Positions 11,383 through 32,012 of a stretch of 59,697 nt of DNA are shown in pieces. Origin of the DNA: a virus. Taxonomy: Duplodnaviria > Caudoviricetes. The stretch covers positions 1 to 59,697 of IMG/VR virus record IMGVR_UViG_3300030233_000116; one strand, 5' to 3'. The translations under genes were made by a program, and so were the position numbers. Numbering within the stretch: the stretch's first letter is position 1; every line of letters begins with the position of its first letter. Below the pieces are notes generated by a model. It was not told the origin of the DNA and ran no database searches. It saw nothing but the letters and a program-made list of their open reading frames with translations.

Positions 11383-11557
11383 AAGCTTGGAGCGATTCGC
11401 GCGCCTGTTCCGCGAGTTCGAGACTGTCAAAAGTAAATCGGCGGATGGGTAGCGGCTCCCCGCGTTCCAACCGGAAGCCGGCAGGGTTGAAGGATTCATC
11501 CGGAATCCCCTCCTCGCCGACATAAAGCACCCACTGCGGGCGAACGATTATCTTCAT
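11315..11557 (-). CDS. Hypothetical protein
   Basis: Start overlaps the portal stop (11554-11557). Confidence 0.45.
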   Translation of the reverse strand: MKIIVRPQWVLYVGEEGIPDESFNPAGFRLERGEPLPIRRFTFDSLELAEQARESLQAYVDKHSHRSNSRRHKGTSRTAG

Positions 11558-13800: not shown

Positions 13801-13826
13801 GGTATGCGGATACGCTACGACAACTT

Positions 13827-16800: not shown

Positions 16801-19800
16801 ACCCCCATCACCTCCGGGCCAAGCGCGGAAAACCCGCGATCCGGGTTACCAACGGTCCGTTGGCCGGATGTTTCGCCCTTGGCCTTTTCGACCATGGCAT
16901 TGACTTCCGGCTCGGAGATGGCCGCCATGATGCGTTCAAGGGCTTTATCGCCTTCAGGCGTGAGGGTGCGGGCGTAGAGAATCGAATCGCTCTGCGGGTT
17001 GAAGCGCTGGCTCAGTGGAATGACGTTGCCTTTGTCGTCGTAGGTTACAGGGTCGGCGGATTTTACCGCATTGGGGTCTGTGATACCGATCTCATGGCCG
17101 ACCTGTTCGGTTCCATAGGCGAGGTTAAACTTAAATGTTTGGTAGTCATCTTGCAAAGAAGCAAAATCCTGACCCAACAACATTTTGAGTAACTGACCAT
17201 CCACGGACCCCGCGTATCGTTCGATAGTCTCTCTGGTAATGGGGAGCCCCATGATCGTGCGGTTAGTCAGCCAACGAATGTCTTCCTCGGTTAAATTGGT
17301 TTGATCAAATACCTTTCCGGGCCGAATCCACGCATCAATGACTTGTGGCGTAGAACCTCTTTCAATTCTGGTCTGCGTCACAGGATCATAGAGCGCCAGC
17401 GTATCGTTAAAATCCTTCGGTTTACCCCGATACCGTTGTAAAAACCGCTCCGCTCCTTCTCTTGTGTCAGCAAACCAAACAACTCCCTTTTCTGCGTCAT
17501 CGGAAAGGAGGTTGAGGTTGAAGCGCTTAAATCCGCCGTTCAAAGTGCCGTGGTAGCCTTTGATTGTGTAACCAGCCGCTCGCGCCGCCTCATCCACCAT
17601 CCGCTGTGCGGTCTCCATGTCGCCACGCTCGACCGCTGCGAGATACTCGGCGTCCTCATCTGTGATGGTGCGGGTGCCAATCCAGTGCTTTTCGATGTAA
17701 TCATCGACAGCATTGTCGATGCTCTTGGGCGTGTATTTCGCACGCATCTCGATCACCTTGTCAATTTCCCTGTTTTGCTGCCTGATGTTATCGATGCTCT
17801 CAAAGTCAGTGTTCGGCTCGTAAAGCTCCTGATCCTCTTTTGAGAGCGCGTTGTATTCATCCAGCTCCTCTTGCATCATCTCGATGTCAGATTCGTTTTC
17901 ACGCTGGATTTTTCGAAGCTCCTTCAAGGAGTAATTATCAGGATGCAGAAGCTCGATGACGTCGTCGCCGGATCCCGTGTCGCCTTCGGCAACAGCCAGA
18001 ATTTCATCCTGAATAGCTTTTGGGCTGGCCTCGATCTTGCGGGTAGCGAGCGGAGTTCGATCATGCTCGATTTCCAACCCCTCTTCAATAGCCGCATCTT
18101 TCAATGCCTTGAGTTGAGTGCGGTTGGGAGCGCCTTGGTAATAAACCGTTTTGCCGTCCTTATAATCTTTCGCAATGCGAACGTATCCCAACGCCCCAGG
18201 ATTGCCCAAAATCAACCCATAACCATCACTGAAAAAGTGATGATGCTCACCCGTATCGACAAACCTTCCATCTGGAGACTGCCAGCCGGCAACCAATTTC
18301 CCTATGCCAACAGTCGGCTTCATTGCCTCAAAGCGTTCCCGAAAAACCTCTTTATTCTTCGCGGCTGTTGCAGCGTCGAAAGCGCCGTATTGCGGGGAGA
18401 TCGACCGGCTCCCAATCGCAAGCGTATCGGCTTCAGAAAAACCGCCATCACGAAGGCCGCGCAAAAATTCACCCTTTAGCCTCTTGTCCTCGGCTTCCAT
18501 TCTTTCTTCCGGTCGTGTCATAACCTCCGCCGCAAGAGCCTGCAGGTTTTTGCGCGCTGACTTCAAATCACCATAGAAAGCCTCATACATCCGCATTACT
18601 TGGGCGCGAACCTCATTCCAGGCTTTCGTCTGGTCTGCATTGAGGTTGCTGTCGGGTTGATTTTCTTCGATCTCAGTAAGACTGAGCCCGCCAACCTCGG
18701 CGAATTCTTTACTATCAAGCGCTTTTTCGACTTGTTTCCAAATGGCGTGCCCTTGAGTGGATTTAGGCCAGTCGTCAGGATCTTGAATGTCAGAATCCAA
18801 AATGCGCTTTATTGAGCGATACCGGCTTTTCTGATCTTTGGAGAGATTGGCGTTTTCAATCAGCGCCGCCATTGCTCCAAACATGGATTTGCCCTCCATC
18901 GCCGCCTCTATCTCCATTTCAATAGAGCGGGCGCCAAGCGCACCGGAGATAGGTGCCACCTCATCCGCCAACGCCCGCAAATCCTCCAAAGCTGACCGCC
19001 GTTTCCCCTCCCATTCCCGTTCCGACGCCCGAATTTCCTCCAAGGCTGCTTCACGCACGCGCTCCCGTTCTTCCCCGCTGAGATCATCAATCGTCGTCTC
19101 GGGATTCGCCCATTCCGGCCAGGCGTCCGGCACGTCGTCGACGTATTGCCGCCAGTCGAGTTCGGGCAGCGGACGGGCATCCATCGATGCCTCATCGCCC
19201 AGTCGATCATTGATAGCAAAAGCGCGGCGCCGGCTGTCGCCCTGCAAATCCTCAATCTCGCCGATTCGCCGCCACAAAACATCTTCGGTTTCCTGCGAAA
19301 GTTCTGGGGAAATCGCTCGAGCACCCAATGCGGCCCGAGCATCAATTCCTTGGCCTTCCAGGCGGGATCGGAGCACGCCCAATGCATTGCTCAGGATCTT
19401 CGAAACGTACTGCGGGGAAACCTCCAGTTCGCGCGCGGTCTCCGCTGCGGTCTTACCGGAAAGCAGATTCTCCACCATGGCGCGCGGTCGGTCCGGAAGT
19501 TTCTGGACAGCAGCCCGGAGAATCCCGCGGATGTCCCCTTGAGCGGCCGTCTCGCGAACGTTCTCATCCTCGCCGATGACTTCCGCCAGGGTTTCGCCGT
19601 CATCAGTGATCGGTTCGTCCAGACTGGCGGACATCCGCGGACGTCGGGATTGCCTGCGGTATTCGGAATTGAGAGCGTTGGAGATGGTCCGATTTGCATA
19701 GGCCGCAAACGGGCCGGACTCGGGGTTGTAACCTTCCGCCGCTTTCACCAACGCCAGGCGAGCGCTTTGAAGAATGTCGTCATATTCACCGAGGTTGCGG

Positions 19801-22800
19801 TAACGGTTCGCCCACCAGCCAGCCAGCCTGAGGTTGTCAGTAACGAGGTTTTGCACCTCTGCCGTACGATCGGAAAGGTCGAGGGTGAGTTGGTCGGGAT
19901 CGATTGTGCGCGCCCCCATCGCTTGCTCTTCTGCCCCCGCTGTTTCCTCCGGCCCCTGAAGATCGCGTTCCAACTGTAAAAACTCTGCCTGCTTGGCCGC
20001 GTATTCCTCTTCCTTCGGCCATTGCTGTTCGGATGCTTGTTGCAGAGGTGTGATTTGCTCTTGCTGCTTCTCAATGCGCGCACGAATCGAATTCACCTTT
20101 GCCTCGCCAGCACGCGCAGAACGCACGACTGAGTTGAGCAACCCTTCAGCCGTTTTAGGGGACCCATTATCCCACATCTCACCCGATGGCGTCTTGATTT
20201 CAGCCTCAAAAGTCACTCGCAACTCCTCAAACGATGCCAAGGCGCCGCGAGCAACCAGGGTGACAGGCACCTCATTTATGCGAAAGCTGATCTCTGCGGT
20301 ATTGTCTGCATTTGCAATCTGGACCGCCTTTTTGCGAAGCTGGTCCATGATATTGCCAAGCGCCTCGACGGCTTCCTTTCGATCCGTGAATACACCGTTT
20401 TCGCCGAAATCGTAAGTAACCGAGTCGCCCTCGAACTGAGCCGACATCTTATCCGAAATGGCTTCATACTGTTTCGCCAGCGCCGTATCCGAGCGGATAG
20501 AGGATTCCAAGTACCATAACCTTTTGCGAGACTCCGCAACCTCATTCAAAAATCCGCGCCGTTCGCCATCCAGCTCGGCGATCTCGCCTTCCAGGTCTGC
20601 CAAGCGCAAAACCCTGGTATCGCCGGAAAGCTGGGCGACCTGCTGGCGCATATTCATCACCACCTCGGACGCCGCATCGTCAAACTCGCGGCCTGAGACG
20701 TTGCCCTTCAATACCTGATGCACGAACGCCTGTTTGGCGGCCATCATATCGTAGATGGCAACGTCCATCGTGCTCTCCACGCCATAACGGATGTTGCGAA
20801 CCGCGAAATCGCTATCGTAATCCGGATTCGCCGAACCATCCTTCAGCTTGGCGCGCGTGAAGATATTCCCCTGCCGGATGATTCGACCATCGCGTTGCTC
20901 AAGCATGGCTGGCGTCATTGAGCGCGGCGGATCAAGATGATGTGCCGCCACCAACCGCTCCTGCATGTTCACTCCGACCCCGAGCTTTTCCGTGGATCCA
21001 AGTATCACCCGGACTTCGCCGCTGTTCACCTTCTCAAACAATGCTTCCCGGCGTTTGTCAGTATTGTGCTCGTGGATGATGGCGATTTGGTTTTCCGGGA
21101 TTCCTCGCTTGATGAGCTTGTCCCGAATGTCGCGATATAGATTGAATCCGCCGCCTGAAAATTCGGCATCCTCATCTGGACCTTCTTTTTCCTGCTTGTC
21201 GGGGTCGGTCTCACCGTCGGCTTCTTCCTCAATCGAAAGCGAGCCGCCAACAAAGGCATCAAGCGTATTAGTGTTGATCGGCCGAAACCGATCCAAGAAC
21301 ACGACCTGCGCGCCCCTCCGATATTCGTTCTCCTGATGAATCTTCGCAATTTCCTCAACCGCGCGATTAACCTTCGACCCTGGTTCATCCAGAGCATCCT
21401 GCCGCACGAGCCGCGGATCTACAGACGCCGCCATCCCAACCTGCATCGTTACGATTGGGACCGCGCGGGCAGCCTCTTTCTCATCGCTGCTACCGCTCTT
21501 CATCACCCGCTCAAACTCCGCGCCAATCTCCATGATCCAATCATTAATGCGGGACACCGCGGGAGTCTGGGGAACGACCTGTAAATCCGGCAGGTTGCGA
21601 CCATCAGAATTTCGCATCTTGGGAACCTTCAGCCCAAGTTCTTCATTCCCCATCTTCACGTCGAATCCTGAGCGGATCATGGCGACCAACTCGGCGCCGT
21701 TGGTGAATCGATTAAAGCGACTCACACGCTTCCATGCGCCCGACCAAGTGCGCTCCAGCTTCGTGTTTAATCGTCCGAAGGTGTGAGCAAATTCATCGAA
21801 AGTGTTAATACCAAAATCTTCCAGCACCGATGGCGTGGCCAGTTTCAACATGATGTATGCTTCGGCCACACTATTGGTAATCGGGGTCCCGGTGGCCAGG
21901 ATCACATTGCGCCCATTGTTGCGGTCCTGAATGTATTTCGTCTTCATCTCCAGACCCATCGCGCGTTGGCTTTCGTCGTTCGGAATGCCCTTGATGCGCT
22001 GCATGTTGGTGATGATCGACGCCTTCTTGTAAGCGTGCGCCTCATCAATGAAAAGGGCGTCTACGCCGGTCGATTCAAAGTCGATCACGTCATCCCCTCG
22101 CTTTTCGAGACCGTCCATCATCCGGCGAAGCTTGCCTTCCATCCGCTTTTTCGCCTTTTGCAACTGCTTGGTGGTCGGCGAATCTTTCCCCTCACTCAAG
22201 CGCATGCGATTGATGGCCTCGCTCAATTCCGCAAGCTTATCGCTGAAAAAGCGCCGAATGGTTTCCTTCGATGGCAAAATCCGATCGAACTGCGGTTGCG
22301 TGACGATCACCATGTCGTAATCGCCCGTGGCAATCTGCGAGATAAACCGAGCGCGACTCTTGGCGTTGAACGTTTTTTCCGTGGCGACCAAAACCTTTGC
22401 TGCCGGGTAAGCCTGCATGACGGATGCCGCAAACTGGCCGATGGTCGCCTTTTGCACCACGATCATTGGCTTTCGCGCCAAGCCGAGCCGCTTCATTTCC
22501 ATCGCTGCGACGATTTGCGAGAATGTTTTGCCAGAACCAACCCCATGCGCCATGACCGCCTTACCCTCCTGCAAAATTCGGGCAATCGCGGATCGGCGAT
22601 GCCCATTCATCCAGACGACATTAGAAAGCCCTGGAATATTGTGGCGCGATTGATCGCCGTCCCTCACCAGATAGTCGCCACTGTAAACAGGGGCGACCAC
22701 GCTGTTCATGACGTCGTTATATTCCTGCTCGACCACTTCTTGCACGGACACCCCCTCGACCTGAACGGCAGTGGTCTTGATCCAACTTTCGAAACGCCGC

Positions 22801-25800
22801 TCCATGTCGGCCATCTTCGCTTTCGCGGCCTGCGTGGCAGGAAAATCCGTCTCTGTCTTCGTTTTGCCGCCGCCAAGACTGACAGTGGTCGTGATTTGTG
22901 GCGAAGTGCCCTTCAACGCATGGGTGAGAAGTTCCGCCCCGCTCAGTTTTCCGCTTTTCCAATCGACGGAATTTCCGCTGGCTAGCGGATTGCTCACAGT
23001 CACAACGTGCGTGTTGGCAGCCGCCACGTAGGAAACCTTAGTTTTGGAGCCGAGGAGATCGGTTGCAAACGCGGAAAGGACGCGCTCAGGAATCCAGCGT
23101 GACGCCAGGGAAAAGTAAATATCCTTTAATGGGACCGTCGGAGGAATCACCCCCTCCAACGCAGCAATATTCGCCCGGTATCGAGAATCTGTTTCCGCCG
23201 CCGCACGAGCGGCCCGAAGACGTTTGCGAACATTTGAACTGAGGTATCGCTCGGCGATTTCCAAACGTCCCGTTGCGGGATCGAGATAGGCGCGCCCGGT
23301 TTCGACAATGCGGTCTTCCGCTTCGCGTTTCGAAATTCCCAGCATATTGGCCACGGAATCAGCATCGACTGATCCCTCAAAGGCCATCAAGATGTTGATG
23401 GCATCGTTGATATTCTCCGCTTTCTCCGGCTTCGAGACCGGTTCCCGGACTCGTTTCGAGAAAATATCCGCCTTGCGCCACGCTTTTTTGACCTTCTTCG
23501 TTCGCTGGTCATAGCGGTCAAACTCTTCTTCGAGCGATTGAAGCAGCGGATATTCCGGATCGTCCTCGAGGAATGCCGCTTTTTCGAGGTGCCGATATTT
23601 CTTTGTAAGGGTGCCGTTGCGCGCGATGAAGCGGTCATAAGCCGCGTTGAGCCGTCGACGCATGGCGTCTAAATCGGCGATGGAAATATCCTGATCGACT
23701 TCACCCGCGATCAGCTCGCGGGCCGCGTCCCGAACCATCATCCAATCATCGGCAATCACCTCCCGATCGCGCCGTTCCTTGTCGGTGATTGGCTCGGTAT
23801 GTTTGTCGCCGTAGTTCTTTTGCGTCAGCCAACTCGCTGGCTCCAATCGACCTTCAACGACTTGAAAAAACTGGCCATCCTTTTGGACGTAACTTCCAGG
23901 CTTGTCGCCGGACGCCGCAACCTGGCTTCGCTGCACCGGCCGGGCGTCGCCTCGCTTAAAAATGTCTTTCGGGAATCGCTCGACGACCGCCGTCAACTCT
24001 GCCCCCGTGTCCTGCCCCGGCTTTGCCACCAAGGCATAATCGCCAGCGGAATACATGGTGCCTTCGAGGGAGTGGCGCCCAAGCGCCATCTCCGGGTTGG
24101 CCGCATAGTATTCGTTGACGAAAATGTCCGCCATCTGCCCTTCGACCTCGGCCTCCCCGACTTTATCCCGGCTGATCCACGAAGCGCCCTCAAACGGTTT
24201 TCCGTCTTTCTTGCGCATCACGATAATGTCCGTGGTGACTTCTGTGCCTGCATTGGCCGCAAATGCGTTGTTTGGCAGCCGGACGGCCCCCACGAGATCG
24301 GCTTTTTCCGCCAGCAACCGACGCACCTTAGCATCGCTCTTGTCCATCGTGCCGTCAGAGGTGATGAAGATCACCAACCCCCCAGGTCGCGTCATGTCCA
24401 GGCCGCGGGCAAAAAAGTAGTCGTGAATGAGCAAGTCGGGGTAATCCTTCGCACCTGGCACCCGGTAGTCACCAAAAGGCACATTTGAAACCACAAGATC
24501 CATGGAAGCCGGAGGGATCGCCGCCCGCTCAAACCCAGTGACTTGAACCTCGGCTTGCGGGTAGAGCTTCGCAAAGATGCGGCCCGAAAGGTTGTCCAGC
24601 TCAACACCAGTCAATGCGCTTTGCTCGGCGATAGACTCAGGCATGCGCCCGAAGAAATGACCGACACCACCGGCCGGTTCAAGCACATCACCCCCACGGA
24701 AGCCCAACCGCTCCGCAATCGACCAGACACCATCAATGACGCGCGGATCGGTGAAGTGCGCGTTGAGTGTGGACGCCGCTGCAGACTCGTATTCTTCCTC
24801 CGAAAGCAATTCGCGAAGCCGAGCGTTCTGCTTTGCGTAGGCAGGTTTTTTCTCGTTGAAATACTCTCCAGCCCACCCCCATCCGGTGTATCTGGCAAGA
24901 ATGTCCTTTTCCGCTGGCCCCGGATTACGATTCTCGGATTCCAAGCGCCGAAGCAATTCGATTGCCTCAATATTGGCGTCGAGCTTGGCCGCATTGCCTC
25001 GAGGTGCAATTTGCACCCCGGCAGGAATCCGGTGATTACGATCGGCTGGCTTTAACTCAGCCGATCGGTCGGGTCTTCCGGTTCCTTGAGGCGGCGCTGA
25101 ATCTCCTCGCTCGCCATCTTTCTCAACTCCTTCTCGCTGGCCGCCGGGAATTGTGTTCGGAAGAACTCTACCAGTTTTTGCATTGGCGTTTTGTCCTTCT
25201 TCATTTGATTTGATATTACTCTCTGCTGTTGCAAAAGTAAACAGATCCTCTTGGACTGCCGCGGGAGCCTTGCGCAACTCCTGCTTGATTTTGGCCCGAA
25301 CCTTTGGCTTCGAAGCCTTTACTGCGGGTGGAAGTGTCTCCACCCAGTCGAACATGTCGGGCGTATTCGGATCTAGCCGCCGGGCGCCAAGGCTCTGAAC
25401 TTGGCCCGTGCCTCGGCTTCGACTTCCGCCGCGCGGGGATTCTGGTTTCCGAACCGCAGTTTCCCGATCGCCCGCTCGACCGCCGCTTCCTCGGCCGGGT
25501 CGATTTTCGGGGGTTCCCAATAATTCCCTTGGCTTTTCTGGTTGTTTGGCTCGCTCATCTACCAGATTATACGTCGCGCGGTCTTTAACATCAACCGATT
25601 CCCCGTCCTTTTGCGCAACCAATTTGGGGCCTTCGGTATTGTCGTAGAGCGCGCCTGTATCAGCCAATGCCAACAGGTTTTTGGCTCCGGCATTAAAGCT
25701 GGAATGCGCGGTGAAAAGCGCCTCATACGGCACCCATCGCCCCTTGCCTTTTGCTCGCAAAACAGCTCGCGTGATGGATTCGGCGGGATCAATCGTGACC

Positions 25801-28800
25801 CCTAGGAACTCAACGGCAAACCCGGCATTCTGCCACTGCTTGATCTTGCTGGCGGACTTTTCAAAGTTCGCCATCGTGCCATCGAAGATGATGTTATATC
25901 GCTCCCGGCGATTCTTATCGACCAATTTCAGTTCGAGCTTTTTCGCAATCCAACTCGATTCTTCATGCACCACGGCGGCCGCCCGGCTGTCTCCGGCTTG
26001 CACGATACGGTCATACTCCGGAATCAACTCCTTGATCTCATCGGCATTGATCTCGACTGGCTGTTGCTTAAATGGAGTCTTGCCCGCTTTGATGCGCGCC
26101 TTGAGCGTAGTGGTTTTCCCAGCGCCACCCCCGCCACCCATGGCCAGAACAACAGGCTTTTGCCCTTCCGGCACCGGCTTCCCACGGCTGATGAAATATT
26201 GGATGACGGCCTCGCGGAATTCATTCCGACTCACTTTTCCCTCGGGAAGCAGACCGGCAGCAACCAAGGGATGCTCGGCATCAACTTCAGCCTCATTGAG
26301 ATCCAAGGTCTCCTGCAACAGGGGGGCGCCGTCCTGCAGCGTGCGCGGCGGAACAGGCAACCCATTTTCAAACTCCCATCCTTCAGACTCGGGAAACGCC
26401 TCGCGGATCCGTGGATCCACAGGACCGGCCAATCGCCGGGTGGCCAGCGTGTGAACAGCCCTCGTGAACAACGCACCAGCATATTGCGAATCTTCCACCA
26501 CCGACCGGAGCAACCCTTCCAGCGCCCTCACCCCATTAACAGACCCCAAAGCCCGTCCGATCCGCTCGACCATCTCAGGCACCTCGCCCTCGAACAAATC
26601 TTGCTGGCCGATGAACTCCTGGAAGGAACCCTTCCCGCCGTCCCGCTTCCATCGCACATATTGCGACACCGCAGGAGCAATCGCCGAATCGATGAAGTCA
26701 GGTTGCGTCTCTCGGATTTGCGCCAGCAGTCCGGATTGGCGAACGAGTCCCTTCGTGAAATTCACCAGCCCGGAATCCTGCGCGTCCTCGATCAGTTGCG
26801 TGAGCGTGATCCCGCGCCCGGCCTGGCGACCTTCCGCGGTATCAGCACCGAGCACATAGGCGAGCATCGCCCGCCGGACATCCTCGTAAAGGTCCGGTGT
26901 GGCCGATCCGTCCCGGGTAAGCCGGTTGCGCAGACCCATGGAGTCAATCACCTCCAGAATCGCTTCCCCGCTCGGACCGTCCTCGAGGAAATTGCCGTCC
27001 TCATCGAACTCGATGGCTGCCAGCACGCCGGGATTCTGCCGGAGCACCCCGGCCCGCTTGATGGCCTCTTCCGGCCGGCTCATCTCATCGGGATTCGCAT
27101 CCCGAACATAGGCCAGCAGTGGATCGGGCTCGGATGCGTAATCGCCGAAATCGACGATTTCAGCGCCCAAAGCCGGCATTTCCATCGCTTCAGCCTGTTG
27201 CGCGGCATCCTCCATGCCGAGGTGTCGGAGGTATCGAGCCACGAACGAGCGCTGCGCGCTCCGGGCCGCAGGCGTGCCGGCCGCACCGTAGATGACGCCC
27301 AACGCCGCCTCGCGACCGTGCCCGGACCGAATGACATCCTTCCCGCCCTCCGAAGTGACCACGATCGGGCCATGCTCGATGCTGGTGGCCGGTATTGATT
27401 TCTCAGGCTTCCACCGCTGGGCGAGATCGAGAATTTGCGCCCGGGATTGCACTCGGTCGCGTTCGCGGGGTTGGTATTTAGTCCCCTTGGAATTTTTGAC
27501 GGTCGCCAGGTCGATCGGCTTCAAGCGAAGCTTCACCTTCTTCGTCCTCGCACTGTTCTCGCTCCAATAGGTGCCGTCCTTTGCCACAGTCCCGAGCGGC
27601 TGGAACGCGGGGGCGGAATCTTCCGCGCCCCGCTGTTCGCTTACTTCCGTTTCCCGCCGCATCCCTTCTTTTTGTGACCTTTGCCTTTCATTGGACTCAC
27701 CTCCTTTCTGAGTGGTGGCAGGATCGGGATTCGAACCCGAGTCTTCAGGGTATGGGCCTGACGTGGTGACCTCTCCACCATCCTGCGTCAAAATTTCTTC
27801 CATCCGGGCGATCATCGCCTGGATCTCCGGCACATCCCCCGCAGCCCGGAGCGATGCAATCACGCTCTCGATCCATCGGTTGATCGCCTCGATGATCCGG
27901 CGGAACCCGGTCTCAGTGATCTCGCCGTCGGCACGCGCCTGCACCAACTGCCGCTTGAACTCGCCCAAAAGGTTCTCAAGCGGCATGCGAACATTGTTCA
28001 CCTGGAGATCGCCCCTGGCCGCCATGTCGAGAAGCGCAAGCGCTTTCTCCTGCATGGTCTCACCGGGAATCGCCTCGATCGCGGCATCAATGTCGGCCTG
28101 CAATCGGTCGCCAGCGAAGTAACTTGCCGCCGAATTGACCAATGCACGTGACACTTTCGCGCCATTGGCACCATTGATGGCCTGCCGGATGCCGCCCGAC
28201 TCTTTTGCACGCTTCCCGGCAACGAAATCCTCAAACGAGCCTTCCCGCCCGCCGCTTTCCCATTCCTCGCGAAAAGCAACCTGTTCGGCCGCATGAGCGA
28301 TCTCCTCGCTCACCACACCCTCGAACCACTGGTCTGCGGCATCCTCACCCAATGCCTGAGCCACAATCCCGCGTTGCCGATCGATTTGCCCCTCATCGAC
28401 ATGAATCCGGGGGCCGTCCTCTCCAAAGGCCACGCCCATGGCATTGCCTGCACCGCCAGGAACGGGCCCCTCGACGACCTGAACGCCCGCGCTCAGTCGA
28501 TTCCGAGAATTGATGTCGGCAACCGCTTCTGTAACGCGCGATAGTCGGCCAGCAGGCGTTCGAATGTCGGCTCCGGATCGCCCTCGGCGAAAGGTCGCGG
28601 TCCCATCGGTAGCCGATCCAGCAGCGACGGATCCCGAATCCGCTCGAGATCCTGGATCCGATTGCGAAGCTCCTGCACCGCTTGCCACCGATCCGGGTGC
28701 GCTCGCAGCTTCTCCGCGCTCATTTGACTGACTTCCATCAGCATCACCATACGCATCTTCCGCCATCCGGTAAACCCCGCGGACCATTCCGATATTCTGC

Positions 28801-31800
28801 CGGGTGACCTGCTGGCGTGCGGTCTCCTCGTCCTTTGCGCGGACCTGCACCGGCTCGCGTCCGTCGACATCGACCTCGAACAGCGCCAGATTTTCCGATC
28901 CTGGCGCTGGGGGAGGGGAATCAACTTCCGTTGATGCTTCTTCAACGAAAGTTGATGGGTCGGGCCGCAAAGGAATCCGAAGCGCCTTCTCGCGCGCTTC
29001 GCTCTCACTCATGCGAATGAGGCGACCGGAAGCTGGAGCGATCTCGCGCAACCGGTCGAGCTGGCCCTCGGTGAGAATCGTCATGCCCTCGACCACTTCC
29101 ATGCGCGGTGTGCCATCGGGTAATGGCGCCGATACCGCCGCGCGCTCCCGGGCATCCAGTCGCTCCAATGGAGTGCCGGCAAGAATCTTCAGTGCCCCCC
29201 TGGCCGCCAATCGATCGGCCTCGGCCTGCGCGGGGTCCATCTCAGGTGGTGGCGCCCATTTTGCCGCTTGGGCGTTGGCAGCCGCCACGAATTCGGGTGG
29301 CGCCGAGGATACCGGACGACCACCCTTTGCTTGAATCTGCTGGTCCAAAGCAACCGCCGCGCCATCCAAGCGAGCCAGTGTTGCATCCTCCATCCCGCGT
29401 TCCGCGGCCTGCTCCTGCATCCGGGAGATTTCCGATCGTTTCGCCATCAAGGCATCGACCGAATCGTCTGGAGCGATTCGCATGGACTCAATTCGACCGC
29501 GAAGGCTTTGATTCTGGTAGCCTTCGACGCCACCCTGCGCCCCTCCGACAACGCCCCCAGCCAAACCACCCAAGGCAGCGGATTGCGCCAACCGCTCCCA
29601 CGCCCCCTCGAACGCCGCCGCCTGATCTCGGAATCCGGCCTCCAGAAGCATGGAAGTTAATTCCTGACCCATTTCCGGCAACGCTTCGCTCCCGGCCCCC
29701 AAGGAAGCACGTCGCACGAACTGCGAAAGCACTCCGCGCCCACCAGGATTGCGCGTCAAAAATTGACCACCCGGAATTTTGTCCATCGCCCCGCCAATGA
29801 CCCCCATCAGCACGCCCTCGGATGTCGCCAAAGCCTTGGCCTCCAATTCCGACGCACCCGCTTCCCGGTGGTATTCCATGGCGTCATTGTATTGGTTGCC
29901 GGCCATCTTCGAGCCGGTCAACGCCATGAAGGTGACCGGAGCGGCCGGGCCGGTCAGTGACGCCAAGCCAAGGTCGATTCCCATCTCGATCATGACCGGA
30001 GCACCCTCAGCCAACAACCAACGAGTCAGGCGACCCGCATCCCAGGAATCGGCATCGGTAAGCTTGAAATTCTGCAATTCCGCGCTGGCTTGATTCCCGG
30101 CCTGCAGGTCGTTCGCCATCTGGCGCACCGCCTGATTCTGCGCCTCCGCTGATGTCCGCCCAAAAATGATGCGTTCGCCGAAATTTTGCGCCCATTGCCC
30201 GGGGTTCAAATTCGACGCCATCTCATTGGCGCCAGCCACACCGCTGGCAATCCGAGGCAGCATCCGGCCAAACACGGAGCGATCCACTTCCTCCCACAGT
30301 CCAATGTTCTCGTTTTTCTCCCGCCATTTCTGAAGCTTGCCATCCTTCCATGCCCGCTCCATCTCAAGGAATGTCTCGCGTTGCGCCTTCGGTAGCTGCC
30401 GCAGCACCTCCCGCCGCTCATCGCCTTTGAGTTCGTAATTCAGGAGTCGTGCCCGGTCCTGCAGCCCCGAGAACTCCTCATTCACCTCCGCCTGGCGTTG
30501 CTCGATCTCTTTCTGCAGCGCCGACTGAGCAGCCATGCGCGCCTCAAGATCCTCGATCGCCTCGATCTCCGCCATGCGCGCCTCAGCATCCGCATCAATC
30601 GCGTCCAGCTTCTCCGCAATCGGTCGGGTCGCCTCATTACCCCGCAACTCCTCCCGAGCCTGCTTCGCCCGCTCTTCGGCCAGGCGTCGACTTTCTTCCG
30701 CTACGGCATTTGCCTGAGCCTGCCCCTGGTCAAACGCCGCCGCGCGTTCCCGTAATGCCTCGACCTCAGCATTGTGGTTCGCCCGCTCCTCCGCGGTCAT
30801 CCCCTGTGTGGCCCGCTCGGCCAATCGCGCGGCCTCGGCCTCGATGGCTTCCACCTCGGCGACCGTCTGTTGCGCGTTCTCGACCTGGCGCTGACTCTGC
30901 TCCTCTGGAGATTCCTCCAATCGAGCCTGAGCCTGCTCCGCGATCCGCCGTCGCATATACCCGCCGGGCCCCTCCTTCTCCAGAGCAAGCAACTCCTGCT
31001 CGAGCCGGTAATCTTCTTCTTCCAACGCCCGTCGCGCTTCATCCCCTGCAAATCGCGCATCGATCTCTTCCAGCCGCGCCTTGCGGATCCTCTCATCCTC
31101 CTGCCATGCAGCCATGGCCGCCGCGTCTTCCTGCGGCTTCGAACCACCGAACAATCCGCGTTTCGGCTCAGGCTTAGGCTTCGGGGTCGCCCAATTTTCC
31201 CGCTCCATGGTCAGCTCTTCGCGTTCCTGGTCAGAAAGCACCTTCGGAGCGTCGGGTGCGCCTTTCGCCACCCTAATCTCCTTACGCCGCATCTCGCGAT
31301 CCCGCTTCTCGCGTGCATGCAGGAACTTCGCGCTCGCAATCCGACGCTGCGGATTGCCGGAGGTCAATGCGACTTCCGGATCAATGACTTCCCATTCCGA
31401 ATTCTTGTTCTGTTTATAAAGATTGCGGTCGTTCGGGTCGTTCGGGTTCGGCCCAATCTTCGCGTTGCGATCGGGATCCACCCGTTTCACATCACCGGTG
31501 GCCGTGCGATCCATCCGGAACGCCCCTTTTTCGTCCCATTTCAGTTCACCCTTGCGCTCTTCGTACAAAGGATTCCCCTCGACATCCCGCTCGATCAGGA
31601 TGTTCCCCAAAGCATCTTTCCGATACCGCACCCCTTGTTCCTGTAGCCCGGCCTCGTGTTGCGCCTTCTCAAGCTTCGCGCGCTCCGCTTCGTATCGCTG
31701 GGATTCCCGCTGAAATTGCTCCTGTTGCCGCTGGACGCCTTCGTTGATGTCCTGCTTGGCCTCCATGAAGCGTCCGGCATCCTGCTGGATGGCCTGCAGC

Positions 31801-32012
31801 CGATCTTTCCGGTTTCGAGCCGTCAGAAGCCCGGATTGCATCATGACAGCCCGATTTGCCTCGGACTGCTGCTGTTCCCGCACCTGATTCCAATCCGGTT
31901 CCGCCGGGCGTTCCGGCATCTCAATGTCGGCAACGAAATCCCGCGGCTCTTCAGGAGCAGGGGAAACCGGCACGCCTTGCGCCGGGCGCACCCCGTGTGC
32001 TTGGCGCTTCAT
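13827..32012 (-). CDS. Giant polyvalent DarB-like virion/ejection protein (6061 aa): coiled-coil/Gly-rich N-term, degenerate zincin, ParB-like, Zeta-toxin P-loop kinase, N6-adenine MTase, SNF2 helicase, sigma70, ART-like, LPD38-like C-term
   Basis: Motifs: YQPRER/SGHGR (~27300-27480); GGGGGAGKT/INADEIKE/HEESS/IFDGT (~25650-26150); LEPAGGVG/NVPFG (~24470-24690); AHGVGSGKT/DEAH/TGTP/QRDGRIIRQGN (~20860-22560); NLRL/DDILQ/LVKA and region-4 HTH (~19370-19850); YHGT (~17550). Confidence 0.9.
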   Translation of the reverse strand: MKRQAHGVRPAQGVPVSPAPEEPRDFVADIEMPERPAEPDWNQVREQQQSEANRAVMMQSGLLTARNRKDRLQAIQQDAGRFMEAKQDINEGVQRQQEQFQRESQRYEAERAKLEKAQHEAGLQEQGVRYRKDALGNILIERDVEGNPLYEERKGELKWDEKGAFRMDRTATGDVKRVDPDRNAKIGPNPNDPNDRNLYKQNKNSEWEVIDPEVALTSGNPQRRIASAKFLHAREKRDREMRRKEIRVAKGAPDAPKVLSDQEREELTMERENWATPKPKPEPKRGLFGGSKPQEDAAAMAAWQEDERIRKARLEEIDARFAGDEARRALEEEDYRLEQELLALEKEGPGGYMRRRIAEQAQARLEESPEEQSQRQVENAQQTVAEVEAIEAEAARLAERATQGMTAEERANHNAEVEALRERAAAFDQGQAQANAVAEESRRLAEERAKQAREELRGNEATRPIAEKLDAIDADAEARMAEIEAIEDLEARMAAQSALQKEIEQRQAEVNEEFSGLQDRARLLNYELKGDERREVLRQLPKAQRETFLEMERAWKDGKLQKWREKNENIGLWEEVDRSVFGRMLPRIASGVAGANEMASNLNPGQWAQNFGERIIFGRTSAEAQNQAVRQMANDLQAGNQASAELQNFKLTDADSWDAGRLTRWLLAEGAPVMIEMGIDLGLASLTGPAAPVTFMALTGSKMAGNQYNDAMEYHREAGASELEAKALATSEGVLMGVIGGAMDKIPGGQFLTRNPGGRGVLSQFVRRASLGAGSEALPEMGQELTSMLLEAGFRDQAAAFEGAWERLAQSAALGGLAGGVVGGAQGGVEGYQNQSLRGRIESMRIAPDDSVDALMAKRSEISRMQEQAAERGMEDATLARLDGAAVALDQQIQAKGGRPVSSAPPEFVAAANAQAAKWAPPPEMDPAQAEADRLAARGALKILAGTPLERLDARERAAVSAPLPDGTPRMEVVEGMTILTEGQLDRLREIAPASGRLIRMSESEAREKALRIPLRPDPSTFVEEASTEVDSPPPAPGSENLALFEVDVDGREPVQVRAKDEETARQQVTRQNIGMVRGVYRMAEDAYGDADGSQSNERGEAASAPGSVASGAGASQSDPGSRADSGSVAAGSATDGTATFRRGRSGADIRTPAGRLSRVTEAVADINSRNRLSAGVQVVEGPVPGGAGNAMGVAFGEDGPRIHVDEGQIDRQRGIVAQALGEDAADQWFEGVVSEEIAHAAEQVAFREEWESGGREGSFEDFVAGKRAKESGGIRQAINGANGAKVSRALVNSAASYFAGDRLQADIDAAIEAIPGETMQEKALALLDMAARGDLQVNNVRMPLENLLGEFKRQLVQARADGEITETGFRRIIEAINRWIESVIASLRAAGDVPEIQAMIARMEEILTQDGGEVTTSGPYPEDSGSNPDPATTQKGGESNERQRSQKEGMRRETEVSEQRGAEDSAPAFQPLGTVAKDGTYWSENSARTKKVKLRLKPIDLATVKNSKGTKYQPRERDRVQSRAQILDLAQRWKPEKSIPATSIEHGPIVVTSEGGKDVIRSGHGREAALGVIYGAAGTPAARSAQRSFVARYLRHLGMEDAAQQAEAMEMPALGAEIVDFGDYASEPDPLLAYVRDANPDEMSRPEEAIKRAGVLRQNPGVLAAIEFDEDGNFLEDGPSGEAILEVIDSMGLRNRLTRDGSATPDLYEDVRRAMLAYVLGADTAEGRQAGRGITLTQLIEDAQDSGLVNFTKGLVRQSGLLAQIRETQPDFIDSAIAPAVSQYVRWKRDGGKGSFQEFIGQQDLFEGEVPEMVERIGRALGSVNGVRALEGLLRSVVEDSQYAGALFTRAVHTLATRRLAGPVDPRIREAFPESEGWEFENGLPVPPRTLQDGAPLLQETLDLNEAEVDAEHPLVAAGLLPEGKVSRNEFREAVIQYFISRGKPVPEGQKPVVLAMGGGGGAGKTTTLKARIKAGKTPFKQQPVEINADEIKELIPEYDRIVQAGDSRAAAVVHEESSWIAKKLELKLVDKNRRERYNIIFDGTMANFEKSASKIKQWQNAGFAVEFLGVTIDPAESITRAVLRAKGKGRWVPYEALFTAHSSFNAGAKNLLALADTGALYDNTEGPKLVAQKDGESVDVKDRATYNLVDERAKQPEKPRELLGTPENRPGRGSGGRAGDRETAVRKPESPRGGSRSRGTGQVQSLGARRLDPNTPDMFDWVETLPPAVKASKPKVRAKIKQELRKAPAAVQEDLFTFATAESNIKSNEEGQNANAKTGRVLPNTIPGGQREGVEKDGERGDSAPPQGTGRPDRSAELKPADRNHRIPAGVQIAPRGNAAKLDANIEAIELLRRLESENRNPGPAEKDILARYTGWGWAGEYFNEKKPAYAKQNARLRELLSEEEYESAAASTLNAHFTDPRVIDGVWSIAERLGFRGGDVLEPAGGVGHFFGRMPESIAEQSALTGVELDNLSGRIFAKLYPQAEVQVTGFERAAIPPASMDLVVSNVPFGDYRVPGAKDYPDLLIHDYFFARGLDMTRPGGLVIFITSDGTMDKSDAKVRRLLAEKADLVGAVRLPNNAFAANAGTEVTTDIIVMRKKDGKPFEGASWISRDKVGEAEVEGQMADIFVNEYYAANPEMALGRHSLEGTMYSAGDYALVAKPGQDTGAELTAVVERFPKDIFKRGDARPVQRSQVAASGDKPGSYVQKDGQFFQVVEGRLEPASWLTQKNYGDKHTEPITDKERRDREVIADDWMMVRDAARELIAGEVDQDISIADLDAMRRRLNAAYDRFIARNGTLTKKYRHLEKAAFLEDDPEYPLLQSLEEEFDRYDQRTKKVKKAWRKADIFSKRVREPVSKPEKAENINDAINILMAFEGSVDADSVANMLGISKREAEDRIVETGRAYLDPATGRLEIAERYLSSNVRKRLRAARAAAETDSRYRANIAALEGVIPPTVPLKDIYFSLASRWIPERVLSAFATDLLGSKTKVSYVAAANTHVVTVSNPLASGNSVDWKSGKLSGAELLTHALKGTSPQITTTVSLGGGKTKTETDFPATQAAKAKMADMERRFESWIKTTAVQVEGVSVQEVVEQEYNDVMNSVVAPVYSGDYLVRDGDQSRHNIPGLSNVVWMNGHRRSAIARILQEGKAVMAHGVGSGKTFSQIVAAMEMKRLGLARKPMIVVQKATIGQFAASVMQAYPAAKVLVATEKTFNAKSRARFISQIATGDYDMVIVTQPQFDRILPSKETIRRFFSDKLAELSEAINRMRLSEGKDSPTTKQLQKAKKRMEGKLRRMMDGLEKRGDDVIDFESTGVDALFIDEAHAYKKASIITNMQRIKGIPNDESQRAMGLEMKTKYIQDRNNGRNVILATGTPITNSVAEAYIMLKLATPSVLEDFGINTFDEFAHTFGRLNTKLERTWSGAWKRVSRFNRFTNGAELVAMIRSGFDVKMGNEELGLKVPKMRNSDGRNLPDLQVVPQTPAVSRINDWIMEIGAEFERVMKSGSSDEKEAARAVPIVTMQVGMAASVDPRLVRQDALDEPGSKVNRAVEEIAKIHQENEYRRGAQVVFLDRFRPINTNTLDAFVGGSLSIEEEADGETDPDKQEKEGPDEDAEFSGGGFNLYRDIRDKLIKRGIPENQIAIIHEHNTDKRREALFEKVNSGEVRVILGSTEKLGVGVNMQERLVAAHHLDPPRSMTPAMLEQRDGRIIRQGNIFTRAKLKDGSANPDYDSDFAVRNIRYGVESTMDVAIYDMMAAKQAFVHQVLKGNVSGREFDDAASEVVMNMRQQVAQLSGDTRVLRLADLEGEIAELDGERRGFLNEVAESRKRLWYLESSIRSDTALAKQYEAISDKMSAQFEGDSVTYDFGENGVFTDRKEAVEALGNIMDQLRKKAVQIANADNTAEISFRINEVPVTLVARGALASFEELRVTFEAEIKTPSGEMWDNGSPKTAEGLLNSVVRSARAGEAKVNSIRARIEKQQEQITPLQQASEQQWPKEEEYAAKQAEFLQLERDLQGPEETAGAEEQAMGARTIDPDQLTLDLSDRTAEVQNLVTDNLRLAGWWANRYRNLGEYDDILQSARLALVKAAEGYNPESGPFAAYANRTISNALNSEYRRQSRRPRMSASLDEPITDDGETLAEVIGEDENVRETAAQGDIRGILRAAVQKLPDRPRAMVENLLSGKTAAETARELEVSPQYVSKILSNALGVLRSRLEGQGIDARAALGARAISPELSQETEDVLWRRIGEIEDLQGDSRRRAFAINDRLGDEASMDARPLPELDWRQYVDDVPDAWPEWANPETTIDDLSGEERERVREAALEEIRASEREWEGKRRSALEDLRALADEVAPISGALGARSIEMEIEAAMEGKSMFGAMAALIENANLSKDQKSRYRSIKRILDSDIQDPDDWPKSTQGHAIWKQVEKALDSKEFAEVGGLSLTEIEENQPDSNLNADQTKAWNEVRAQVMRMYEAFYGDLKSARKNLQALAAEVMTRPEERMEAEDKRLKGEFLRGLRDGGFSEADTLAIGSRSISPQYGAFDAATAAKNKEVFRERFEAMKPTVGIGKLVAGWQSPDGRFVDTGEHHHFFSDGYGLILGNPGALGYVRIAKDYKDGKTVYYQGAPNRTQLKALKDAAIEEGLEIEHDRTPLATRKIEASPKAIQDEILAVAEGDTGSGDDVIELLHPDNYSLKELRKIQRENESDIEMMQEELDEYNALSKEDQELYEPNTDFESIDNIRQQNREIDKVIEMRAKYTPKSIDNAVDDYIEKHWIGTRTITDEDAEYLAAVERGDMETAQRMVDEAARAAGYTIKGYHGTLNGGFKRFNLNLLSDDAEKGVVWFADTREGAERFLQRYRGKPKDFNDTLALYDPVTQTRIERGSTPQVIDAWIRPGKVFDQTNLTEEDIRWLTNRTIMGLPITRETIERYAGSVDGQLLKMLLGQDFASLQDDYQTFKFNLAYGTEQVGHEIGITDPNAVKSADPVTYDDKGNVIPLSQRFNPQSDSILYARTLTPEGDKALERIMAAISEPEVNAMVEKAKGETSGQRTVGNPDRGFSALGPEVMGVDEVYGSKLVREKEADWNEAGRRMAAENPGGVIEMALERGMAGGTLNPEETKAVQVVVAEEMSKPLTPERRRILTGLVWAYRQTGTEAGRQLASRKDPFMSPAERHREFLAKAIFTPPSKVRKQIEKADQAEKQRLLDAESARIKAIEKALNAMGITFDMIFGGEVELILKGSAIVKNILSGFTSQDSKIVRALQGGAKSFEVIGKEMGATAKEVEAVRDRYADAVNTRYRDTVRKLLERGVSPGEVAKYIDQTGVALGAAALGNREVSDADVDAAMAQVLEAMGIAPKTEQGKRKTVRRRVPKRRPLLQVPQTPVSDAPVGPTPGAYPEDQTRLELNEDQAARNRTRMPRSDAPAAPEAGPQQKLPLEYENREIMVRFPIDDAQQVVRVARTAQAASGNPFDMAIEYWINGILSGPQTHIVNIAGNFANTAWDMTVQRGMEAVMNLMVKDQKGAQFGEFKHLLAGLRPGLAKGWKMAVKAWDAESDFFESEVLGGQVELFEDFDKAGGVQPAIKGRTGRIVRIPGRLLLFMDSLFKFTIGRMETGAMAFRIGKQKGLEGKKLEEFIADEVNTPGSMSWQYAVDKAVDMTFQTPLKNADEGGNVMEQLARNAQDLRRKAKILSFIIPFVRTPYNIFATGIRKTPLGSIPMTYRLLQAGFFKFRDGKPVLTSHPQLVRDMAEQTIAWVGTLMLLGMAEGDEDDDNKLILISGSRPSNSALADMQARTSGGPYSIRIGGRNGVTVSYGRLEPFATILGTVVDAARMTKSGGGSQEKTSQFFSYMVGQTQDKTFTAGIGGLMETIQNFSDPDRADFAASRFRSSFLSGLVPNIIRQPLRNMDEFQRDYRTAQVYYDMLPIPQFAAPRIDQVTGEPVRKDGNAASRLLIPWTREMEGSEQVDVMLRNWNRENPSLAWAPPRPSNKISRNGEQIELDADEYQELVALSAKYAGIRLRSVLNSLNTRNPTEDDFERVKKAFEQGRALARREMLLRRR
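25052..25204 (-). CDS. Nested +1-frame small protein (50 aa, MKKDKTPMQKLVEFF...)
   Basis: TTTACT(25241-36)-17-TAATAT(25218-13), 8 nt before the ATG; amphipathic helical product. Confidence 0.6.
   Translation of the reverse strand: MKKDKTPMQKLVEFFRTQFPAASEKELRKMASEEIQRRLKEPEDPTDRLS
25373..25558 (-). CDS. Nested +1-frame small protein (61 aa) directly after the Zeta domain; candidate antitoxin
   Basis: TTGATG(25594-89)-17-TATAAT(25571-66), 7 nt before the ATG. Confidence 0.65.
   Translation of the reverse strand: MSEPNNQKSQGNYWEPPKIDPAEEAAVERAIGKLRFGNQNPRAAEVEAEARAKFRALAPGG
25566..25594 (-). promoter_or_regulatory. Internal sigma70 promoter inside the giant gene
   Basis: TTGATG-17-TATAAT. 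Confidence 0.7.
27641..27691 (-). CDS. Nested 16-aa basic peptide MKGKGHKKKGCGGKRK
   Basis: GAAAGGAGGTGA Shine-Dalgarno (27708-27697), 5 nt before the ATG; immediately 3' of the nested tRNA. Confidence 0.65.
   Translation of the reverse strand: MKGKGHKKKGCGGKRK
27713..27787 (-). tRNA. tRNA-Met(CAT), initiator-like, embedded on the sense strand of the giant CDS
   Basis: CGCAGGA TG GTGG AGAGGTCA CCAC G TCAGG CCCATAC CCTGA AGAC TCGGG TTCGAAT CCCGA TCCTGCC A CCA; D, anticodon and T stems fully paired, C1xC72 mismatch, encoded CCA. Confidence 0.85.
28493..28738 (-). CDS. Nested +1-frame protein (81 aa, MEVSQMSAEKLRAHPDRW...)
   Basis: TTTACC(28774-69)-17-TATGGT(28751-46), 7 nt before the ATG; product looks helical while the host frame there is low-complexity. 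Confidence 0.6.
   Translation of the reverse strand: MEVSQMSAEKLRAHPDRWQAVQELRNRIQDLERIRDPSLLDRLPMGPRPFAEGDPEPTFERLLADYRALQKRLPTSILGID

Follow-up and report, generated by a model that had tools for sequence, protein, structure and literature searches.

What keeps a toxin-type kinase in check in the cell that makes it, when that kinase is one module of a giant phage polypeptide? The question is raised by a single virus record of 59,697 bp (IMG/VR IMGVR_UViG_3300030233_000116; completeness rating 98%), a nearly complete phage genome of about 60 kb that we refer to, over its whole length, as the window. Between its terminase and portal genes lies an open reading frame (ORF) of 6061 amino acids (aa) that encodes a polyvalent protein (13827..32012, minus strand) and that contains a Zeta/PezT-type kinase domain (aa 1945-2112; 25677..26180, minus strand). 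Behind this domain, in the +1 frame relative to the giant ORF, is a nested gene of 61 codons plus TAG (25373..25558, minus strand; MSEPNNQ...RALAPGG), predicted to encode a helix-loop-helix peptide of a family typified by AVEKAVDxLPYGKFNPKAxEVEA. Read in the main frame, the same DNA (25373..25560, minus strand; about aa 2152-2213) is a low-complexity G/S/R/P/E linker that leads from the Zeta domain to the next modules. The comparisons below show this linker DNA to be dual-coding by prediction, with the linker in the main frame and the 61-aa peptide in the +1 frame, and the best explanation overall, which we hold to be somewhat better than an even bet, is a conserved overlapping gene behind an intact Zeta module whose peptide may act as the cognate neutraliser of that module.

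The kinase module looks active, and its predicted catalytic apparatus is intact. The domain matches PF06414 (Zeta_toxin) with an E-value of 1.7e-31 and a score of 109.7 bits against a gathering cut-off of 22.3, and PezT (2p5t) aligns with it at E 3e-6, the Walker A motif GGGGGAGKT (26112..26138, minus strand) and INADEIK pairing with GGQSGAGKT and IIDGDSF of PezT. All five motifs listed in a preliminary description of this DNA (GGGGGAGKT, INADEIK, HEES, FDGT and LYDN) are present, and in an alignment of 64 sequences the G and K of Walker A, the Asp of NADE, the His and Ser of HEES, the Asp of FDGT and two Arg residues are invariant. The fold and these motifs (Walker A, the Asp of NADE/DxD, the HEES region and the two Arg) are those of the epsilon/zeta and PezA/PezT systems, in which, as in the window with its predicted helices, a small helical protein is encoded beside the kinase. 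The EGTLR motif of PezT, of the GTxR type, aligns with DGTMA, its Arg replaced by Ala, and the consensus of the phage set is DGTG. Classical Zeta toxins are specific for uridine diphosphate N-acetylglucosamine (UDP-GlcNAc), which is bound by the Arg of this motif. UDP-GlcNAc should therefore not be assumed to be the substrate here.

The arrangement departs from that of PezAT in several ways. The PezAT toxin is a free protein of about 250-290 aa whose antitoxin is an upstream, co-transcribed gene, whereas the kinase in the window is an internal module of the 6061-aa ORF and its candidate partner lies downstream, overprinted in the +1 frame. None of the 57 ORFs of the window matches an epsilon or PezA family in Pfam, in agreement with the earlier reading that no epsilon-type gene is visible elsewhere. 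The nested peptide itself has no detectable similarity to epsilon or PezA and no match in Pfam, PHROG or the PDB sequences. These searches bring up no informative match for the small proteins described below either, a RecA match to alignment A4, which involves tandem-fused chains, being regarded as spurious.

The layout of the nested ORF is as first described. A promoter-like TTGATG-17-TATAAT (25566..25594, minus strand) is followed after 7 nucleotides (nt) by the ATG at 25558, the +1 frame has a stop codon directly before this ATG, and the ORF ends with TAG at 25375-25373. The proposal that it has its own sigma-70 promoter gains no support, because a motif match of this kind is expected by chance: the giant gene holds one such site against 5.5±2.3 in shuffled sequences, the window holds three sites scoring at least 10/12 against 2.5±1.8 in simulations, and the equivalent sites in relatives score from 6/12 to 9/12 and stand at differing distances from the ATG. 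Nor does the length of the ORF set it apart from chance: the +1 frame of the giant gene contains 19 ATG-initiated ORFs of at least 61 aa, and comparison with control positions does not discriminate, +1 ORFs being common in the genes examined. Linkers of G, S, R and P are poor in codons with T in second position and so cannot make +1 stops, which means that openness alone says nothing.

The number of such ORFs and the composition of the linkers fit an account in terms of a chance open frame, or of a decaying and unexpressed relic, any conservation then being a by-product of homology in the main frame. GC content by main-frame codon position 1/2/3 is 0.75/0.67/0.49 in the nested region and 0.57/0.43/0.64 in the Zeta domain, so that the nested region follows the +1 frame, with a flip that falls in the top 1.8% of windows along the giant gene. 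It is also possible to imagine that the window hides a compensated frameshift, such that the +1 peptide would be the main frame of homologous proteins. A database search finds 56 giant homologues with a related Zeta module (3.3-7 kb of residues), and these have an alignable G/S/R/P/E-rich linker behind that module; the +1 peptide matches the main frame of 0/55 giant homologues while the main-frame linker aligns, which leads us to reject a compensated frameshift.

Conservation of the +1 frame among relatives argues for a gene. A tblastn search of about 100 related loci with the 61-aa peptide returns one match (E 4e-5), in the +1 frame of L007 and 150 nt behind a Zeta module whose domain is 48% identical to that of the window. 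Over 37 gapless codons the two sequences share 19 residues in the +1 frame, compared with 11 in the main frame and 10 in the +2 frame, and the nucleotide differences number 11/13/22 at +1 codon positions 1/2/3. We then asked how much +1 identity the main-frame proteins impose by redrawing synonymous codons in 5000 runs while keeping each main-frame protein. The observed +1 identity between the window and L007, 18/37, compares with an expectation of 6.2±2.2, and none of the 5000 runs is as high. The pairs L005-L007 (8/18 vs 2.8±1.4; P 0.0008), L007-L108 (9/18 vs 3.3±1.6; P 0.003) and L005-L108 (7/18 vs 2.9±1.4; P 0.01) also exceed expectation, and control blocks within the Zeta domain give P from 0.017 to 0.91. 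The alternative frame is thus conserved beyond the constraint of its host frame, as is characteristic of embedded genes.

The codons of the core motif account for an otherwise puzzling feature of the main frame. In L005, L007 and L108 the main-frame codons at this point are TTA, ATA and CTA, each followed by CGG; usage was counted for CTA and ATA, which in the genes of these three loci make up only 1-5% of Leu and 1-4% of Ile codons, respectively. The only base that varies is the first base of the main-frame codon and the third base of a +1 Pro codon, and it precedes an invariant +1 TAC-GGN-AAR. The linker motif PLREVQ, which is conserved in the main frame of many homologues, is thus the shadow of +1 LPYGKF.

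The peptide family also exists outside the giant genes. An exhaustive HMMER search of 1.84 billion protein representatives (E<=1e-3) returns 21 proteins, comprising 17 small proteins, P0075 and three giant repeat proteins; an earlier word-indexed search with four nested peptides had found two small proteins. The 17 small proteins come from independent clusters, are 48-97 aa long and 15-47% identical to the window peptide, and have in common the core ..P.P....RAVEKAVDxLPYGKFNPKAxEVEAxAxAxFR. We reject the three giant repeat proteins (P0065, P0074 and P0077) as members, each having a chance LLPYG motif in a stretch of less than 10 bits. P0075, of 209 aa, joins the tail of a Zeta domain and a family peptide in a single frame. 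A 20-member profile built without the window has a single match in it, at 25391..25510 (minus strand; E 8e-15), in the frame of the 61 codons and spanning both predicted helices and the KLRFGNQNP loop. Run against 14,758 six-frame ORF segments from 146 Zeta loci, the same profile matches only L007, L108, the window and L005, in all four cases in the +1 frame and starting +82 to +100 nt past the end of the Zeta domain; at the same place in L006 the value is 0.26. On these grounds the family, with at least 21 members, is shown to be conserved at the level of sequence.

Its association with Zeta domains is consistent. The preliminary description had proposed looking for nested ORFs downstream of Zeta domains in other giant proteins, and that co-occurrence is found: all three relatives for which DNA is available (L005, L007 and L108) carry the family peptide in the +1 frame behind the Zeta domain, and in 5/5 members with known upstream context, these three together with the window and P0075, the peptide is directly behind a Zeta domain. 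Among 401 genomes of the phylum of G001, the family occurs in G001 itself, nested behind its Zeta module, and in none of the others. A search for relatives with a closer subset of family peptides returned only the contig of L007 itself. AlphaFold2, run with a 21-row alignment, predicts helices at residues 21-32 and 43-57 around the KLRFGNQNP loop with a mean pLDDT of 80.2 and values of about 90 in these blocks. Prediction of a complex between the Zeta module (alignment A7) and the peptide (A5) gives scores of 0.00 and 0.00 without controls, and speaks neither for nor against binding.

Several of these results weigh against a functional gene in the window and must be set beside the rest. Comparison of the window with L005 (4/18 vs 2.5±1.3; P 0.21) and with L108 (3/18 vs 2.8±1.4; P 0.57) gives no significant excess of +1 identity, the window copy has diverged further than the other three nested copies, and its core reads LRFGNQ instead of LPYGKF, although residues of this type recur elsewhere in the family as LRFG(KF) in P0079 and GNQN(P) in P0068, P0072 and P0073. 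Phase counts over the whole ORF and three-frame local alignment scores are dominated by low-complexity composition and by a bias towards the aligning frame. The flip in GC periodicity is also seen in two other linkers of the giant gene, and the openness of the +1 frame is explained by linker composition. The window peptide was itself part of the profile that brought up the 17 database members, and the ten of these that were looked up are mostly on context-poor contigs of 1.2-6.2 kb, with one of 26.7 kb. The account that invokes chance or decay nevertheless has to accommodate a recoding result that no simulated run reached, rare xTA codons fixed at the core motif, a window-free profile with only four specific matches, a core common to independent clusters of small proteins, a confidently predicted hairpin and a nested ORF whose ATG and full length are intact, and we judge it quite improbable. 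That the nested ORF is a real, expressed overlapping gene appears, from these comparisons, very probable.

How such a gene would be translated is less apparent from the window itself. The nested ATG is present, but no Shine-Dalgarno sequence precedes it anywhere in the window clade, which counts against the proposed gene. Even a lax test, however, finds a Shine-Dalgarno sequence before no more than 9 of 38 genes in the window. Metagenome-assembled genomes labelled Verrucomicrobia and Acidobacteriales contain two relatives of the giant gene, and the two observations together hint at a host that makes little use of this signal. Nested ORFs of other clades look different. AAGGAG-like motifs precede most nested ATGs of the two further families described below, as well as nine unclassified nested ORFs, and they occur in two main-frame phases. 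An automatic count, which takes the first ATG and hence understates the true number, finds a Shine-Dalgarno sequence before 13/31 nested ATGs compared with 126/1683 control +1 ATGs (P 1e-7).

The missing signal in the window clade could also be taken to mean that the +1 frame is reached by ribosomal frameshifting, or read from an in-frame variant, to give a shorter protein in which the helical hairpin would form a cis-acting tail of the Zeta domain. P0075, in which the Zeta tail runs in frame into the family peptide, fits this idea, as does L078, where a peptide of another family is fused in frame after Zeta. P0075, however, comes from a 1.9-kb contig and may reflect an indel, an ATG starts the ORF in 4/4 nested copies, and a +1 stop lies 0-4 codons before that ATG in the window, L005 and L108, while in L007 the frame is open for about 39 codons upstream of the chosen ATG. 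Considering also the clear Shine-Dalgarno sequences and ATGs of other clades, we regard frameshifting or an in-frame product as very unlikely, and internal initiation on late mRNA is the most likely way in which the nested peptide would be made.

What would the peptide do? The role proposed for it comes from its position relative to Zeta domains. The 146 distinct related Zeta loci include 83 that are terminal, in which the ORF ends within 120 codons past the domain, and 58 that are embedded, in which it continues. A second kind of small gene, Family 1, encodes proteins of 55-75 aa with the C-terminal end ...G..vEIPfExP and no Pfam or PHROG match. It adjoins the Zeta domain as a free-standing gene in 38 of the 83 terminal loci (examples are L013:3106-3303, L022:3064-3240 and L026:3109-3297) and is also present in 6 of the 58 embedded loci. 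Its start is usually at, or overlapping, the stop codon of the Zeta gene, the two genes are sometimes convergent, and in some cases it is fused to the N-terminus of a following XkdF-type prohead protease. The carriers scanned include three MuF-Zeta and three portal-Zeta fusions, the others having no Pfam carrier domain. Family 1 is nested in the +1 frame in L031, where Zeta is internal, and in L052, where Zeta lies upstream of MuF, and L078 contains the in-frame fusion mentioned above. A tblastn search of cultured phages with two Family 1 members gave no match.

Family 2 accounts for 11 loci, of which three are nearly identical. Its genes are nested in the +1 frame, behind an embedded Zeta domain, and start at a main-frame INE(K/Q)A. 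The peptides end in LPhPVxFPVx(D/E)-stop, with conservation of the +1 residues P-V-x-F-P-V where the main frame is variable (G, S, P and R); nucleotide differences by +1 position are 115/112/201. Members with a strong Shine-Dalgarno sequence include L009:3021-3194, L112:3009-3167 and L117:3012-3161. We also observe further nested +1 ORFs of 55-84 aa behind embedded Zeta domains, in L116:3006-3245, L008:3009-3260, L123:3003-3194 and L097/L098/L100 (+97), which have a Shine-Dalgarno sequence and a helical, protein-like sequence and fall outside the three families; L097, L098, L100 and L103 have a common C-terminus, ..KAFKdGxxLxxxxTP-stop.

We propose that the peptide is a cognate neutraliser of the kinase module, akin to an immunity protein or an antitoxin, that would be made alongside the giant protein and would silence the kinase in the producing cell or lysogen. 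The arrangement could have originated from a cassette of a Zeta domain and a small downstream gene, in which the stop codon was lost on fusion to further modules, the small gene surviving in its old frame, overprinted in what became a linker. Two considerations lead to this role: in polymorphic toxins a small immunity gene follows the toxin domain, and three unrelated small-gene families fill the same slot behind Zeta whatever the carrier. By analogy with those systems, neutralisation of the Zeta kinase by the nested peptide has, in our estimate, a little less than an even chance.

This role has several points against it. Expression of the peptide is a prediction and its binding to the kinase a supposition, and the replacement of the EGTLR Arg by Ala means that the substrate of the kinase need not be UDP-GlcNAc. 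In the pairs compared by hhalign, Family 2 shows no relation to the window family or to either of the two Family 1 subfamilies; the two subfamilies match each other (96.6%). Without detectable mutual homology, the case for a function shared by the families comes from their position. Relatives have nested +1 genes in further linkers too, so that the position behind Zeta may be less specific than it looks. One such gene, unrelated to the first and encoding about 113 aa (MRDPDQLP...CPxC...), is nested in the +1 frame of a later linker in L005 and L108, from +691 and +397 after the end of Zeta, respectively, and is lacking in the window. The +1 identity of this gene between the two loci is 25/44 against an expected 9.3±2.6, and a GGAG lies 10-12 nt upstream of it, supplied by the conserved main-frame motif LDLFG.

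Such genes fit an explanation in which the nested ORF is real and expressed but its product does not neutralise Zeta, the linkers being general hiding places for assembly or packaging helpers, anti-host peptides or regulators. The ~113-aa gene, the +1 ORFs that the window has in two more linkers with the same GC-phase flip, and the fusion of some Family 1 proteins to an XkdF-like prohead protease, which points to capsid assembly, are all in its favour. It does not readily account for three mutually dissimilar families that all lie directly after a Zeta domain, for the retention of this slot across MuF, portal and giant-protein carriers, or for the finding that Family 1 stays with Zeta when the latter is upstream of MuF (L052) or internal (L031). 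We consider a function unrelated to Zeta rather unlikely, though clearly more credible than a chance frame.

The individual elements of the proposed pair have precedents, and Zeta-like kinases in polyvalent proteins, toxin-immunity pairs and embedded phage genes are each already known. A zeta-toxin-like kinase is named among the domains of polyvalent proteins and among MuF fusions in the parts of Iyer et al. 2017 (PMC5512222) considered here, and the polypeptides described there resemble that of the window: they are giant and multi-effector, their genes lie among those of the virion, and they carry ddrB-ParB, SNF2 helicase, methylase-type and zeta-toxin-like kinase modules. Nested inhibitor genes of the kind proposed for the window are not described in those parts of PMC5512222, and its text mentions neither overlapping genes nor frameshifts, autoinhibition or self-intoxication. 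Small ORFs that follow MuF toxin genes have been proposed as immunity genes (Jamet et al. 2017, PMC5576092). The layout set out in the sections of PMC5576092 that we drew on, a virion-associated carrier and toxin domain followed by a small ORF, is exactly that of Family 1 loci; Zeta is not mentioned in that paper. A C-terminal toxin domain with a separate small ORF is what 38 of the 83 terminal loci have, with Family 1 as the small gene; the window instead has an internal domain and a small ORF that overlaps a linker of its host gene.

Overlap of this type is itself familiar. In phage lambda, Rz1 lies inside Rz in the +1 frame, and the window resembles this pair in that a longer gene entirely encloses a short +1-frame gene that is conserved among relatives. 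It differs in the enclosing region, a disordered polyprotein linker, and in the proposal that the nested product acts on a neighbouring domain of the host protein. EzeT of Escherichia coli is a Zeta toxin with a cis-acting antitoxin domain that is N-terminal and in the same frame, so that kinase and inhibitor again fall within the span of one gene. The candidate inhibitor of the window is instead downstream and in a different frame, and the in-frame versions in our set are L078 and P0075. In the literature searched, as far as the sources were seen, we find no description of an inhibitor-like gene overprinted in the linker of a toxin-bearing polyprotein.

If the peptide does neutralise the kinase, the locus would represent a toxin-inhibitor pair in which the inhibitor is overprinted in the polyprotein gene of its toxin, an arrangement that escapes gene callers and toxin-antitoxin-finding software, and it would explain how phages can make in quantity a virion effector that may be harmful to themselves. 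Should the proposed function fall away, the analysis still yields a conserved, unannotated family of small phage proteins and an explanation for the PLREVQ linker motif. It also suggests that the linkers of polyvalent proteins can be mined for hidden small genes, with signs of at least two more in the giant gene and one in its relatives. A bolder generalisation, which we put forward as doubtful, is that in giant proteins the linker after an effector module holds, overprinted in its +1 frame, a gene for the cognate inhibitor of that module. The linkers would then be former toxin-immunity cassettes and one 18-kb gene would hide a set of small regulatory genes that go unreported by gene callers, Zeta and its 61-aa hairpin being the first example and at least three non-homologous inhibitor families occupying this slot.

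The additional nested ORFs of the window are as follows. The linker that comes next contains a second +1 ORF, of 50 aa (MKKDKTPMQKLVEFF...; 25052-25204, minus strand), which resembles Family 2 in starting at a main-frame N-E pair; it falls in the stretch of strongest +1-type GC periodicity of the giant gene (24999-25181). A 125-aa +1 ORF (28493-28870, minus strand) overlaps a low-complexity linker at 28578-28760, upstream of the ddrB-ParB module, in which GC periodicity likewise flips towards +1.

Nearly all genes of the window are on the minus strand. They include those for the terminase (33786-35627), portal (11554-13830) and major capsid protein (6570-8048), together with genes for a podophage fibre protein (Gp80 family), a tail fibre, an endolysin and replication proteins. 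The preliminary description had the toxin-antitoxin pair folded into a structural gene, which is not simply so: the giant ORF does lie among virion genes, but the Zeta domain is one module of a polyvalent protein that unites ddrB-ParB (aa 1489-1613), Zeta_toxin, SNF2, Helicase_C and sigma-70 regions 2 and 4, as identified by Pfam. The start of this protein is a putative one, its product in the protein collection (P0003) having 4611 aa compared with 6061 codons counted from the ATG at 32012. At 18.6-19.9 kb of the window (minus strand) the giant ORF encodes sigma-70 region 2 (E 2e-9) together with a weak region 4, and sigma-70 domains are also listed for some giant homologues (P0038, P0042 and P0058); these regions may constitute a sigma-like module that is delivered together with the giant protein.

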